The notes below the pieces were generated by a model. It had not been told where the DNA came from and made no database searches. It saw only the letters and a program-made list of their open reading frames with translations. Below, one piece after another: positions 10,719-22,718 of a DNA stretch of 64,000 bases (the stretch's first letter is position 1; every line of letters begins with the position of its first letter). Position numbers and translations under genes: made by a program. The DNA is from an uncultured cyanobacterium (GTDB lineage: Bacteria; Cyanobacteriota; Cyanobacteriia; Cyanobacteriales; CAWCAG01), in NCBI GenBank assembly GCA_963803805.1, contig CAWDOD010000010.1, positions 352,001 to 416,000 on the forward strand, written 5' to 3'.

Positions 10719-11060
10719 ATGACTGAAGATTTAACAACTAAGCGGAAACTACTTTCTGGATTATCCCATGGGGCAATATTCTTGAGTGCAACTGTTGTTT
10801 CAGTAGGAATTCCTGTTGCTATTTATCTAGTTTCAGATGATGCCATTGTTAAAGCAAATGCTCAAGAATCTCTCAATTTCCACTTTAATATTTGGCTCTA
10901 CGGAATTATATTTGGTATTTTAGCTTTTTTCGTCATTGGTATTCCTCTGCTTTGGATATTAGGCATTGTTAATGTTTTGGCTCCCATTTTTGCCATCATT
11001 AAAATCGTTGCTGATGCTGATACAGTTTTTCGCTATCCCTTTATTTTTCGCTTACTCTAA
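10719..11060 (+). CDS. DUF4870 family membrane protein
   Basis: NAQESLNFH and FRYPFIFRL motifs; 3 TM. Confidence 0.8.
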   Translation: MTEDLTTKRKLLSGLSHGAIFLSATVVSVGIPVAIYLVSDDAIVKANAQESLNFHFNIWLYGIIFGILAFFVIGIPLLWILGIVNVLAPIFAIIKIVADADTVFRYPFIFRLL

Positions 11061-11091
11061 AGTTTCCATGGCGATACAATTAACTTCACCT

Positions 11092-11140
11092 AAAAATACG
11101 CTGCTTACCTAGTATAGAAAAGTGTAAGCAGCGTATTTTT
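11092..11140. terminator. Bidirectional intrinsic terminator
   Basis: AAAAATACGCTGCTTAC ... GTAAGCAGCGTATTTTT inverted repeat between convergent genes. Confidence 0.8.
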
Positions 11141-11180
11141 TCATCAAGAATTAGTAACAGTTAATAACTTAATTTAGTTA

Positions 11181-12534
11181 TTAAACTAACTGCTCTTCTT
11201 CTAGTAAAGAAGTTCTTTGAATAGAAGCACCCAATTGACGTAATTTACCTTCTAAATTGTCGTAACCTCTATCTAGATGCTGCAAACCTTTAATCACAGT
11301 TTGACCATTGGCAGCTAAACCTGCCAGTACTAAAGCCGCAGATGCCCGTAAATCCGTAGCTAAGACTGGTGCGCCGGAAAGCATTGGCACTCCTCGAACA
11401 ATGGCGTGATTCCCTTTTAAGCGAATATCCGCCCCCATGCGGTTTAACTCTGCGACATGACGGAGGCGATTCTCAAACACTGTTTCTGAGATGACGCAGT
11501 TTCCTTCACTTACAGCCATTAAGGCCATAAATTGAGCCTGCATATCTGTAGGAAAGCCGGGATAGGGTAAAGTTTCAATATCGGTGGCTTTTAACTCTCC
11601 AGGAATGACGCGGAGGCAATCAGCACTGTCTGCCACTACGTTACATCCTGCGGCCTGTAGCTTAGCAATAGCCGGAACAAGATGCTCCGGAATGACCGGA
11701 GAAATACTTATTTCTGAATGGGTAATGGCCCCTGCAACTAAGAAGGTTCCGGCTTCAATTCTGTCGGGAATCACAGAATAATCTGTAGAATGTAAACTTT
11801 CTACCCCAGAAATGATAATAGTATTAGTGCCTGCACCACTAATTTTTGCACCCATAGAACGGCAAAAGTTAGCTAAATCAACCACTTCTGGCTCTTGGGC
11901 TGCGTTTTCAATAACGCTTTCTCCTTCGGCTAAGGTTGCTGCCATCATCACAGTTTCGGTAGCACCAACGCTAGGGTAATCTAAATAGACTTTCCCACCT
12001 TTAAGCCTCTTACTAGCCCCAGGAACATAGGCATTAATCATACCACCTTCAATATGAACCTCGGCTCCTAATGCTCGCAAACCCTTAACATGGAGATCCA
12101 CTCGGCCTCGCACCGATGGCACAACCACCCGGTAAAGGAACCCGGGCAGCCCCTAGCCTGGCTAATACAGAACCAATAACAAAAAAGCTAGCTCTCAATT
12201 TAGAGACTAACTCATAGGGGGCAGGCCCGACGTTCAAATTTTTGGCATTGATGTCTAAAATATCCCCTTGAGTAGAAACTCTTACTCCCAAGGAAGCGAG
12301 AATTTGACCCATTCTCCTGGTATCCACGAGGGAGGGAACATTTCGCAGTCGGCAATCTTCTGGACAAAGTAAGGCCCCTGCCATAATTGTGAGGGCTGAG
12401 TTTTTTGCACCACTGATAGTAACGTGACCCTTAAGAGACTTTCTGCCCCAAATTTTTAATACAGGTTGATCTTCTTCGGACATAGAGTTGCTGGTGCTTC
12501 CGTTCAAAGAGGTATTGATGGTTCGGTCCTCCAA
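11181..12534 (-). CDS. murA: UDP-N-acetylglucosamine 1-carboxyvinyltransferase, split by a +1 frameshift near 12102 (probable sequencing error)
   Basis: [21 protein letters not shown] in ORF 12085-12534 continue as VDLHV...PDRIEAGT...PGFPTDMQ...DLRAS in ORF 11181-12128. Confidence 0.93.
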
Positions 12535-12733
12535 AATAATGCAGTTAATAGTTTGCGGACTAAAAATAGAAAATTCGTTCTGATTTTACCTGAAAGATAC
12601 CAATTGTGTAGATTATTATCAAATTTTTTCATTGACTTGAGAAAAGTAGCATCTTTTGCTTAGAGGAGAAGCTTGACTTTATTGATAAAGTAAGAGACTA
12701 TCAAAGGCTGTGCTAAAAATAATATACATTCAA

Positions 12734-12817
12734 GCGGAACTGGCGGAATTGGTAGACGCGCATGATTCAGGTTCATGTGTTCGCAAGGACTTCCGGGTTC
12801 AAGTCCCGGGTTCCGCA
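12734..12817 (+). tRNA. trnL: tRNA-Leu(CAG)
   Basis: Acceptor GCGGAAC/GTTCCGC, anticodon arm CATGA-TTCAGGT-TCATG, long variable arm, GGTTCAAGTCC T-arm; CCA not encoded. Confidence 0.96.
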
Positions 12818-19312: not shown

Positions 19313-21166
19313 ATGAATAGGGCTTATATTAATAGTATAGGTAAGTTTTTACCAGGCAAACCCATTACGAATGGGGAAATGGAAGATTATTTAGGGAAGA
19401 TTAATGGCCAAGCTTCGCGAGTAAGGAAAAAGATACTTAATAGTAATGGCATTCAACAACGCTACTACGCATTAGATCAGCAACAAAATACAACTTATAC
19501 TAATAGCCAAATGGCAGCTTATGCTGCTAAAGATGCTCTTTCAAGGGGGAACTTAGAACCACAAGAAGTTGATTTACTTGCTTGTGCCACAAGTTGGCCA
19601 GATTTATTAGTACCGGGATTTGCTAGCTTAGTACATGGAGAGTTACCAGAATTATCTCCCTTAGAAGCTATTTCTACCCAAGGTGTTTGTTGCGGGGGAA
19701 TTGCTGCTTTAAATTATGCTGTTTCTCAAGTCAAATTAGGTAAAAGGAGTAATACTCTAGCCATCGCATCTGAGTTTGCTTCTCGCTTATTTAAACATAG
19801 TAACTTTGAAGCAGAAAATAAACTTAAAAATGGTGGTAAACTCCCTTTTGATACAGAATTTCTTCGTTGGATGCTTTCTGATGGTGCGGGTGCTTTTTTA
19901 ATTCAAAATGCCCCTGCTAAGGAAGGCATTAGTTTAAGAATAGAGTGGATTGAATCAATTTCCTACGCCAATGCTTATCCTTTGTGTATGTATGCGGGGA
20001 CTGCTGATGAAACAGGAAGAAAAAGCTGGCTAGATTATCCTTCTTATCAAGATGCTGCTGCTGCTGGGGCAATTAATTTACGGCAAAACATTCGTCTTCT
20101 TGATCAGGTGGTTAAGTTAGGGGTAGAAGGCTGGTTAAAACTGATTGAAACAGGAAAAGTGAATCCAGAAGAAATTGATTGGCTTTTGTGTCACTATTCT
20201 TCCCATTTCTTCCGTAGTAAAATTGTTGATTTATTAGCACAAGGTAACTGTTTAATTCCTGAATCCAAGTGGTTTACCAATCTCTATACTAGGGGCAATA
20301 CAGGTTGTGCTTCTCTCTACCTTATGTTGGAAGAATTATTCCACTCCGGCAAGTTACAACCAGGAGAAAAAATATTTTGCTTTGTCCCAGAAAGTGGCCG
20401 CTTTACCACTGCTTATTTAATGTTGACAGTGGTGTCTTTTGAAAGGGAAACAGTAACCTCAGAACCCTCATCTCTAACCTTTCCTCTTAGTAGTATTGCA
20501 ACGAAAGATTCTAATACTATAGCAGCCAGTTTACTACGGCAATTAGCTTTAGTTTGGTTGGAATTTGAACGCAACTTAAATTCAGTTCCATTGATTCGGA
20601 AACTATACCGTAATGAATTTACAATTAAAGATTATCAGGCTTTATTGCGTAACCTACGTCCTCAAGTAGTAGAAGGGGCAAGATGGATAGCTCGTGCTGC
20701 TTCTAATATGCAAGATTTTCAACTTCGTTCTACCTTTATTGGCCATGCCCAAGATGAACACCGAGACTATCAAATGTTAGAGCGAAATTATGTTTCTGTA
20801 GGGGGTGAATTAGCAGAGATTATTAATGCTGAAAAAAATCTTGGTTCGGAAGCTCTTTCTGCTTTTATTTTCCATCAAGCATCCCAAGAAAATCCTATAG
20901 ATTTGATTGGGAGTATGTTTATTATTGAAGGTTTAGGTAATCAATTAGCAGGGCAATGGGCTTCTTTAATTAAACGAACTCTCAATTTAAAGGAAGAGCA
21001 AGTTTCTTTTTTAAGCTATCACAGTGCCAATGATGAATCTCACATCGGCAAGTTGTCAGCTATTATTAATGCACCTTGGCTAACTCCAAAAATTGCTCAA
21101 CGCATTATTAAAACAGCTAAAGTTACCGCACGTTTATATCAATTACAATTAGAAGAAGTCAAATAA
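19313..21166 (+). CDS. DarB/StlD-like KAS III ketosynthase fused to a C-terminal heme-oxygenase-like (diiron) domain
   Basis: KS: TQGVCCGG (Cys), WMLSDGAGA, LCHYSS (His), GNTG (Asn), FVPESGRF; C-terminus: QVVEG, HAQDEHRD, IIEGLG, YHSANDESH metal-ligand pattern. Confidence 0.8.
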   Translation: MNRAYINSIGKFLPGKPITNGEMEDYLGKINGQASRVRKKILNSNGIQQRYYALDQQQNTTYTNSQMAAYAAKDALSRGNLEPQEVDLLACATSWPDLLVPGFASLVHGELPELSPLEAISTQGVCCGGIAALNYAVSQVKLGKRSNTLAIASEFASRLFKHSNFEAENKLKNGGKLPFDTEFLRWMLSDGAGAFLIQNAPAKEGISLRIEWIESISYANAYPLCMYAGTADETGRKSWLDYPSYQDAAAAGAINLRQNIRLLDQVVKLGVEGWLKLIETGKVNPEEIDWLLCHYSSHFFRSKIVDLLAQGNCLIPESKWFTNLYTRGNTGCASLYLMLEELFHSGKLQPGEKIFCFVPESGRFTTAYLMLTVVSFERETVTSEPSSLTFPLSSIATKDSNTIAASLLRQLALVWLEFERNLNSVPLIRKLYRNEFTIKDYQALLRNLRPQVVEGARWIARAASNMQDFQLRSTFIGHAQDEHRDYQMLERNYVSVGGELAEIINAEKNLGSEALSAFIFHQASQENPIDLIGSMFIIEGLGNQLAGQWASLIKRTLNLKEEQVSFLSYHSANDESHIGKLSAIINAPWLTPKIAQRIIKTAKVTARLYQLQLEEVK

Positions 21167-22023
21167 TGTACAATCGCCAAAATCCTGATGCTTGGCAGGT
21201 ATTGTATTTTGACCAAGCTATTCCTGTAGACTCTGTGGCTAAGGAATATATGATTGAAGACTTACAAAGTTGGACTCGTAATTACTTGCTTGTTCCTATC
21301 AAAGTTTTGGCTAACCTAATGTTAGCTTTAATTATGACTTTGAAGCGGTTGCTGCCCTTCCAATTTAAAGCCTATACTTTAATGCACCGTGTCGCTGTAT
21401 TTTTCTTACAAAACTTTGTTTCTCCGGCAGCTTGTTATTTAATTGTCAGACATATTTGCCTTGGCTCTAACATTGTCAATTTTCTTATTGATAATAGTCC
21501 TGATCCTCAAATCGAAAAATCACAACTCTATCCTTGCAAAATAGAAGATTTAGCTCAAAATGCTTTCTTAGAACATGACCTCATTCTCTATAACTTTGTT
21601 TGGGATTATAATCAAGCAGCAATTAAAAATCCTAACTGGTTAAAAGAAGTTCAAAAAAGAGGAATTGATTATAATGCTATTAGTCCTATAAAAGTAGAAA
21701 TAGATTTTAACAAAAATCGTTGGCTAAGGATTTTAGATTTAGAATCTGCTTTGGAACTATTCAAAGTTTTTTATTCTCTTTGCTTAACTAGCGAAGAATT
21801 TGCTAGGGCTGTTTTGTCACTACAACTTGATGAAAACTTTGCTATCTATGTAAGCAAACTAACAGGTGATTATAACTGGAACCATATTATCTCTAACCGT
21901 AATCCTCTAGCACCTAATAGCTCTTTTCAAGCATCTCGCAATTTAATGTTACATGGAGTCGTTACTGAATATTTACACCGTTACTTAGAAATAAGGAAAT
22001 ATGGAGGTATGAACAATGAATAA
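21166..22023 (+). CDS. Uncharacterised protein translationally coupled to the ketosynthase (possibly DUF6999-like)
   Basis: TAATG stop/start overlap at 21164-21168; RHICLGSN, FLEHDLILYNF motifs. Confidence 0.7.
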   Translation: MYNRQNPDAWQVLYFDQAIPVDSVAKEYMIEDLQSWTRNYLLVPIKVLANLMLALIMTLKRLLPFQFKAYTLMHRVAVFFLQNFVSPAACYLIVRHICLGSNIVNFLIDNSPDPQIEKSQLYPCKIEDLAQNAFLEHDLILYNFVWDYNQAAIKNPNWLKEVQKRGIDYNAISPIKVEIDFNKNRWLRILDLESALELFKVFYSLCLTSEEFARAVLSLQLDENFAIYVSKLTGDYNWNHIISNRNPLAPNSSFQASRNLMLHGVVTEYLHRYLEIRKYGGMNNE

Positions 22024-22121: not shown

Positions 22122-22718
22122 ATGTATCTAAAATTTTCCCAAGATATTGAATATTTACTTAAGGAACTAACTCATCAACCTCTTACCATTAAAGATGTTT
22201 TGCAAGAAACCTCCCAGCGAGGAATCACTTTGGTAATTGCTTTATTGATTTTACCTTTTTTAGTTCCTATGCCTCCCGGTTCAGCAAGTATTTTGGGTTT
22301 AGGATGCTTTTTATTAGCTATACAAATGGCTTTAGGTAAAAATAATTTATGGCTACCGAAAAGAGTAAGTAATTATCAGTTTCCTCAGAAAATCACCATT
22401 AAATTATTACAGAAACTTAGAAGTATTACTAAGTTTCTAGAAAAAATAGTTCGTCCTCGGTTATTGAGGCTATCTGAAAACAGTTATATTTGGCGGCTAA
22501 ATGGATTATGTATCGCTTGGCTAACCATTTTATTAATTTTGCCACTTCCTTTCACAAACTTCATGCCTACCATAGGCATTTTATTTTTAGCCATCGCGAT
22601 GTTAGAATCTGACGGTTTATTAATGTGTATTAGCTACTTCCTAAGCTTAATAATCACCCTAATATTCGCCTTTCTTGGCTACACTATTTTACAAACTTCT
22701 ACCTTCCTTTTAAACTAA
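22122..22718 (+). CDS. exoD: ExoD family exopolysaccharide biosynthesis membrane protein
   Basis: LPFLVPMPPG, LWLP, RPRL, LPLPFTNFMP, LESDG motifs. Confidence 0.85.
   Translation: MYLKFSQDIEYLLKELTHQPLTIKDVLQETSQRGITLVIALLILPFLVPMPPGSASILGLGCFLLAIQMALGKNNLWLPKRVSNYQFPQKITIKLLQKLRSITKFLEKIVRPRLLRLSENSYIWRLNGLCIAWLTILLILPLPFTNFMPTIGILFLAIAMLESDGLLMCISYFLSLIITLIFAFLGYTILQTSTFLLN

Follow-up and report, generated by a model that had tools for sequence, protein, structure and literature searches.

A two-gene cassette in an uncultured cyanobacterium very probably represents a conserved pathway of three parts that makes an acyl-derived lipid. The cassette occupies positions 19,313 to 22,023 of the window, by which we mean the whole 64,000-nucleotide stretch of contig CAWDOD010000010.1 that was analyzed, and encodes a DarB/StlD-type ketosynthase fused to a heme-oxygenase-like oxidase, followed by a protein of family DUF6999. 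We tentatively read it as a module that does without the aromatizing enzyme DarA, in which the ketosynthase would form a ring, the metal domain would carry out oxidative decarboxylation and aromatization, and DUF6999 would add a further step, a chemistry that we infer from the known relatives of each part. An initial annotation of this DNA had proposed an uncharacterized lipid pathway, and the evidence below supports this as the likely role. The parts of the cassette are as follows.

19313..20434, + strand: ketosynthase domain of the fusion, residues 1-374, of the StlD/DarB type of beta-ketoacyl-acyl carrier protein (ACP) synthase III (KAS III), with Cys126, Glu154, His294, and Asn329
20435..20518, + strand: Ser/Thr-rich linker of variable length, residues 375-402, defined by composition and comparison of homologs
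20519..21166, + strand: heme-oxygenase-like, predicted dimetal domain, residues 403-617 plus stop codon, with conserved Q451, E/D454, H478, E482, D485, E539, Y569, H570, D574, and H577
21166..22023, + strand: DUF6999 (PF22523) protein, 285 residues, all alpha, with a hydrophobic helix at residues 42-62 and near-invariant H96, H137, D138, D191, D222, H263, and E268

The homologs of the window mark it as cyanobacterial. Both reading frames of the initial annotation are present, the fusion at 19313-21166 (617 residues) and its partner at 21166-22023 (285 residues), and the fusion stop and DUF6999 start overlap in the TAATG it had noted (junction AAATAATGTAC). The linker had been called Ser/Thr rich, and 12 of its 28 residues (375-402) are Ser or Thr, with its length differing between homologs. 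A promoter scan was at chance level, giving 16 against 13.8 by chance.

Linkage and distribution of the cassette

The three parts of the cassette occur together across distant lineages. At least 80 loci were recovered with a single distant DUF6999 protein as query, mostly from Bacteroidota but also from gammaproteobacteria, a Leptonemataceae genome, and a Caenarcanales genome. Ketosynthase, oxidase, and DUF6999 were found together in all 80 listed scan loci (79 fused), in 12/12 cyanobacterial loci (11 fused, one broken), and in 7/7 further proteobacterial loci (5 fused, 2 split). Counted together, 99 of 99 DUF6999 loci from cyanobacteria, Bacteroidota, proteobacteria, and a spirochaete-group genome hold all three, in a set that was picked by DUF6999 and contains many akin loci. 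The ketosynthase and oxidase are fused in 95 of these 99, and a fusion of DUF6999 to the ketosynthase was not seen. The coupling of partner gene and ketosynthase suspected in the initial annotation is thus borne out by a survey of fused and split versions.

Starting from the ketosynthase rather than from DUF6999, matches at E ≤ 1e-40 occurred in 19 of 301 genomes of the cyanobacterial phylum, 17 of the cassette type and 2 of the darAB type. DUF6999 was present in 16 of the 17 genomes with a cassette-type ketosynthase; the exception has a ketosynthase with stops and a truncated oxidase. Counting the centre genomes, DUF6999 was found in 7/41 close relatives, 7/401 genomes of a proteobacterial sample, and 3/301 of a Bacteroidota sample, and Caulobacter vibrioides, used as a control, has it too. 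With the oxidase region as query, there were 1767 matches among 4165 candidates of fused length, with a KAS III domain in all 120 among the matches listed. Given this number of fused-length matches and the existence of split forms, fusion of ketosynthase and oxidase is neither rare nor essential.

Several loci deserve separate mention. Triple fusions suspected at L085 and G591 were rejected, as these are long open frames in GC-rich DNA without a DUF6999 fusion. Decayed copies, with ketosynthase, oxidase, and DUF6999 broken or lost together, were seen at L152 (genome G166), L126 (G158), and L015, the last on an 805-kb plasmid of Nostoc flagelliforme, near a cytochrome P450 gene. The split cassette of Pseudoalteromonas sp. 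THAF3 (L014:7648-8205 and 10852-12756) has a 185-residue His-rich membrane protein without a Pfam match upstream and a 634-residue protein with a weak Ig-like match downstream. One oxidase-domain homolog, P0507, comes from a Hormoscilla genome and is a weak lead only; Hormoscilla produces alkylphenols (anaephenes).

A DarB/StlD-type ketosynthase

Residues 4-374 of the fusion best match the StlD/DarB models NF005293 (439.1 bits) and NF053539 (396.5 bits), for which the curated cut-offs are 450 and, for the DarB model NF053539, 550. Other cassette ketosynthases score 311-428 bits, and darAB-type ketosynthases score 551-592 on NF005293. The closest solved structure is StlD 5GK0 (E of 2.8e-88), with the next best at 6e-19. 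The initial annotation had recognized a KAS III-like domain with DarB/StlD motifs, and GVCCGG, CHYSS, GNTG, WMLSDGAGA, and VPESGRF are all present in the sequence.

The active site is conserved as well. C126, H294, N329, and E360 occur in 31/31 cassette ketosynthases, with the Cys-His-Asn triad aligned to that of StlD, and position 154 is Glu in 30 of the 31 and Asp in one, with Glu at the equivalent site of 5GK0. We take Glu154 (StlD numbering) to be the catalytic base. These catalytic residues are the same as those kept in DarA-linked ketosynthases. In a maximum-likelihood tree of 37 ketosynthases hand-picked from the collected loci, from which L161 was dropped for coverage and FabH left out, the sister of the cassette clade is a DarA-linked Streptomyces ketosynthase (UFBoot 77), and four darAB-type ketosynthases and one Prevotella ketosynthase fall outside. 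G102, R158, Y295, and G362 are common to the cassette ketosynthases and the Streptomyces sister. A FastTree tree with a FabH outgroup is consistent with a separate cassette clade.

The Streptomyces sister lies on a linear plasmid (L160:6706-15113) with genes for an ACP, a DarA homolog, an FAD monooxygenase, FabF, a P450, and FabG. Stand-alone DarB-type ketosynthases were also seen on plasmids from Bacteroides and Prevotella (L161:3989-5131 and L162:3989-5125), where they follow a TetR/HTH regulator, and in the stretch around these two ketosynthases DarA, oxidase, and DUF6999 were all without a match.

A heme-oxygenase-like domain with an unusual ligand set

The second domain of the fusion is predicted to have the seven-helix heme-oxygenase-like fold. 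By sequence, PF14518 is matched at residues 470-609 with a score slightly below the cut-off (E of 4.4e-6, 27.1 bits versus 28.9), with two orthologs scoring 37.1 and 41.6 bits. A model of residues 396-617, built on 53 sequences with a predicted local distance difference test (pLDDT) score of 92.2, aligned best with 3DDE (Z of 24.9, root mean square deviation of 1.9, 213 residues aligned) and with Fe/Mn CADD (Z of 23.8, deviation of 2.0, 207 aligned), followed by HrmI (20.9), TenA and heme oxygenase (20.6), FlcD (19.3), and UndA (19.0). Foldseek agreed, with template modeling scores of 0.85 to both 3DDE and CADD. The initial annotation had named this fold beforehand as a point on which its reading could fail, and the model upholds it.

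Candidate ligands were compared in two sets, one of 199 distinct domains and a second of 120 sequences. E539 of core helix 2 and H570, D574, and H577 of core helix 3 (HxxxDxxH) are present in 199/199 and 120/120. In the first core helix, H478 and D485 occur in 199/199 and E482 in 198/199, with D485 in 119/120 of the second set; D481 is found in 181/199 and H483 in 192/199, with Gln at 483 in 7 proteobacterial sequences. The pattern read in the initial annotation, E..HxxDEH..E..HxxxDExH, holds in its core Glu and HxxxDxxH, whereas within HxxDEH conservation falls on H478, E482, and D485, and D481 and H483 vary. Q451 does not vary, and only Glu or Asp occurs at position 454. Profile alignment places H478-x3-E482-x2-D485 over H-x3-E-x2-H of 3DDE.

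Judged from these residues, the domain would carry a carboxylate-rich two-metal site. The ligand motif described in PMC11363339 for characterized heme-oxygenase-like dimetal enzymes is E-H-E-H-(D/E)-H, with Glu as a seventh ligand in SznF and RohS (PMC11363339, PMC13133933). Because the closest characterized structure is Mn/Fe CADD and the ligand set is noncanonical, the label "diiron" is unproven for this domain. It is very improbable that the domain activates no O2 at all and acts as a metal-poor or cofactor-free hydrolase or oxidase of the TenA or PqqC kind or holds substrate. The His-to-Asp deviation in the first core helix and the Z scores of 17-21 for TenA and PqqC structures would fit such a role, but seven to eight candidate ligands, including the full HxxxDxxH, are invariant across the 199 and 120 sequences, and 3DDE and metal-bound CADD rank first in the structural comparison.

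DUF6999, a likely membrane-attached enzyme

The partner protein belongs to DUF6999 over its full length (PF22523, 352.6 bits versus a cut-off of 27, residues 3-276), and its model is all alpha with a pLDDT of 95.9. H96, H137, and D191 are invariant in 104 DUF6999 sequences and H263 in 98/98, with D138, D222, E268, N110, and R95 nearly so. Together with the hydrophobic helix at residues 42-62, these residues suggest an enzyme that is probably attached to the membrane and has a metal or catalytic site.

Structure searches gave no convincing match to a ferritin-like or other known metalloenzyme fold. Foldseek of the model against the PDB and viral models returned nothing at E ≤ 0.001, a wide structural alignment had no match at Z ≥ 8 (the best, with Z of 6.5, covered 73 residues in a C-terminal helix bundle), neither sequence nor profile searches of the PDB found anything, and two Atlas look-ups yielded the protein's own cluster or a 0.75 match and nothing else. 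The confidently modeled protein appears to match no solved structure, and such weak matching is no proof of a new fold. We rejected the idea that DUF6999 is a second heme-oxygenase-like domain, as profile comparison gave this a probability of 0.3%. No paper in the open full-text literature searched mentions DUF6999 or gives it a function, and term look-ups in PMC12419801 (Lipocone) gave no mention of the DUF6999 cassette context.

The initial annotation had raised the possibility of a new cyclase here. With a fold match absent, that role is unproven, and the invariant His/Asp/Glu set looks more like a metal or catalytic site. A related alternative, which we consider unlikely, is that the chemistry runs in a different order, with the metal domain desaturating or hydroxylating the acyl substrate or finished ring and DUF6999 acting as an unrecognized aromatase that replaces DarA. 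The linkage of DUF6999 is as strict as that of the oxidase, its seven near-invariant His, Asp, and Glu residues hold in about 100 sequences, and its hydrophobic helix suits a lipid substrate. Against this, similarity to DarA or to a solved fold was not found, and there is therefore no positive chemical lead; DUF6999 was also never seen fused to the ketosynthase, while the oxidase is fused in 95/99 loci.

DarA, carrier proteins, and neighboring genes

Our DarA-type query came from a bartoloside-like cluster, was named by its position beside DarB without a family model, and reaches homologs of 32-36% identity. It matched darAB loci and had no match in the cassette loci compared or in four cassette genomes, including the 97%-complete genome of the window. 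No carrier protein was matched on the contig of the window, and the carrier-protein and PF04116 matches of this genome are on other contigs. The initial annotation had seen neither DarA nor an ACP nearby, and these searches extend that observation to the genome for DarA and to the contig for the carrier protein. Two cyanobacterial darAB-type ketosynthases are unfused frames of 383-385 residues. In one cyanobacterial genus, a bartoloside-like darAB cluster (L150:2774-12625 in G134, and L151 in G156) contains DarB, a DarA-type gene, a glycosyltransferase, a DevBCA-type exporter, and a putative CylC-like region.

Genes beside the cassette include the following.

22122..22718, + strand: exoD-family gene (PF06055), adjoining the cassette here and outside the conserved unit
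L013:5511-5981, L011:10409-10978, L121:4571-5080, and L122:5365-5850: Coq4-like genes beside the cassette at other loci

An envelope role had been suggested from the adjacent exoD gene. We dropped this suggestion and rejected exoD as a cassette member, since it is absent beside the cassette in 12/12 other cyanobacterial loci, including that of a same-genus genome. Of the 77 loci with sufficient flanking sequence, 51 have a PF04116 hydroxylase directly upstream of the cassette, a desaturase-like membrane gene is present at 5/7 proteobacterial cassette loci, and Aas-like acyl-activating genes adjoin the cassette at L085 and L120, so that the neighbors of the cassette are lipid enzymes. Elsewhere in the window, a MurA-like gene (11181-12534) is seemingly split into two overlapping frames of 149 and 315 residues, which suggests a frameshift or assembly error.

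The Coq4-like gene has the exact HDxxH(x)11E spacing and adjoins the cassette in 4/12 cyanobacterial loci from four families. COQ4 with this motif has been reported as an oxidative decarboxylase (10.1101/2023.11.13.566839), and the end product could be a dialkyl-hydroxyquinone or hydroquinone redox lipid, for which the oxidase would aromatize the ring, the carboxyl would be kept or replaced by hydroxyl, and Coq4-like or PF04116 proteins would add a third oxygen. We regard this as improbable. It would be in keeping with the restriction of the Coq4-like gene to 3 of 301 sampled genomes, always beside the cassette, but the Coq4 Pfam match is weak (E of 0.006, under the cut-off), the gene was not found in the genome of the window, and most sampled genomes have no cassette, so the product is not a quinone that serves respiration in general.

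A proposed pathway

DarB, StlD, and BrtD form a carboxy-cyclohexanedione from a beta-ketoacyl thioester and an enoyl thioester, and DarA or StlC aromatizes this ring with loss of CO2, as described in PMC6836626 and PMC13748660. In the pathway we favor, the cassette ketosynthase would likewise probably condense a beta-ketoacyl chain head to head with an enoyl chain, giving a carboxy-cyclohexanedione, with acyl-ACPs borrowed from fatty-acid synthesis as its substrates, as proposed for the ACP-less bartoloside cluster. The fused metal domain, presumably using O2, would then oxidize and decarboxylate the ring to an aromatic dialkylresorcinol-type core in place of DarA. UndA converts a fatty acid to an alkene by oxidative decarboxylation (PMC11350588), and similar CO2 removal with C=C formation on the ring acid would yield the enedione tautomer of a resorcinol. 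Because such a reaction makes the same net change as DarA or StlC, the fused domain would be a chemically fitting stand-in for DarA. DUF6999 would likely perform a further obligatory step at the membrane, and accessory hydroxylases, desaturases, or Coq4-like proteins could provide lineage-specific decoration. More tentative still is the view that this amounts to a DarA-independent route to new two-tailed aromatic or quinone lipids through two unstudied metalloenzymes, namely, a carboxylate-rich heme-oxygenase-like oxidase (His to Asp, with an extra His and Glu) that receives the ketosynthase product within a single polypeptide and a membrane-attached His/Asp/Glu DUF6999 enzyme of unsolved fold.

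Several observations weigh against this pathway. The window ketosynthase falls under both curated StlD/DarB cut-offs (439 versus 450; 397 versus 550), and the 31 cassette ketosynthases form one clade (UFBoot 100), separate from the darAB-type ketosynthases, with F103, C293, and L307 as typical residues. A 2019 review cautions that DarA-less homologs may not make carboxy-cyclohexanediones (PMC6836626). Since TenA proteins and heme oxygenases match the oxidase model at Z of 18-21, about level with HrmI and UndA, the fold leaves the chemistry unfixed. Asp485 appears to occupy the place where characterized enzymes carry His, and the profile alignment does not show the canonical Glu...His pair in core helix 1, where H478 or H483 may stand in. 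In two Chitinophaga genomes the cassette, in one of them with a split DUF6999, exists alongside darAB, which indicates that the cassette is not a plain darAB replacement for the same compound. Finally, replacement of DarA by the oxidase alone gives no reason why DUF6999 should be strictly required.

An unlikely alternative is a ketosynthase that does not cyclize as DarB does. From two acyl chains, such an enzyme would produce either a linear beta-keto acid or a pyrone. Oxidative decarboxylation or desaturation by the metal domain would turn this product into a long-chain enone, alkene, or lactone lipid, with DUF6999 in the role of a release or transfer enzyme. Head-to-head KAS III enzymes yielding pyrones or ketones are known in PpyS, MxnB/CorB, OleA, and NocG. 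The well-supported separate clade with residues of its own, including C293 next to the catalytic His, the scores below the DarB cut-offs, the caution of the review (PMC6836626), and the cooccurrence with darAB in Chitinophaga all favor it. On the other side, the closest relatives, both solved and curated, are without exception StlD/DarB, far ahead of the rest (E of 3e-88 versus 6e-19), Glu154 is retained, and the sister lineage is DarA linked.

Significance and comparison with known systems

The cassette is real, conserved, and uncharacterized, a system of the DarB/StlD kind with two unstudied partner enzymes. No paper on the ketosynthase, oxidase, and DUF6999 trio was found in the open full-text literature, a search outside which the original DarB and StlD studies (subscription) lay. 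Martins et al. (2019) described clades of DarA-less DarB in cyanobacteria with products still undiscovered (PMC6836626), and the cassette offers a directly testable answer, in only two genes, to the question of what these homologs make. Its heme-oxygenase-like oxidase, coupled to a ketosynthase, departs in its ligand set from the characterized motif, and the cassette gives DUF6999 a first functional context. The module is patchy but wide, in 16/301 genomes of the cyanobacterial phylum, 7/401 and 3/301 in two other phyla, and a Caulobacter species used in the laboratory, so its product could be a lipid or signal that is common but has been overlooked.

Compared with DarAB(C), StlCD, and BrtCD, which make dialkylresorcinols, stilbenes, and bartolosides, the cassette has the same StlD/DarB-type ketosynthase with its Cys-His-Asn triad and Glu154, and a dedicated ACP is absent as it is from the bartoloside cluster (PMC6836626). 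It differs in having no DarA or StlC, in a ketosynthase of a separate clade under the curated cut-offs, in a fused or adjacent heme-oxygenase-like domain, in an obligatory DUF6999, and in being able to share a genome with darAB. Among the DarA-less cyanobacterial homologs of Martins et al., the cassette ketosynthases probably correspond to the larger of the two clades (PMC6836626); the fused oxidase, DUF6999, and the spread beyond cyanobacteria are unmentioned in the passages of that review examined. The oxidase shares its seven-helix fold, core Glu, and HxxxDxxH with CADD, UndA, BesC, SznF, RohS, HrmI, FlcD, and AetD, as well as with 3DDE (Sden_3740, from structural genomics), and by its spacing E/D454 would sit at about the seventh ligand of SznF and RohS. 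In contrast to these enzymes, its first core helix reads HxxxExxD rather than ExxH, Ex6H, or Ex9H, it is fused to a ketosynthase, and it has 14-17% identity to any solved member. DUF6999, catalogued in Pfam as PF22523, is here tied to a ketosynthase and an oxidase.

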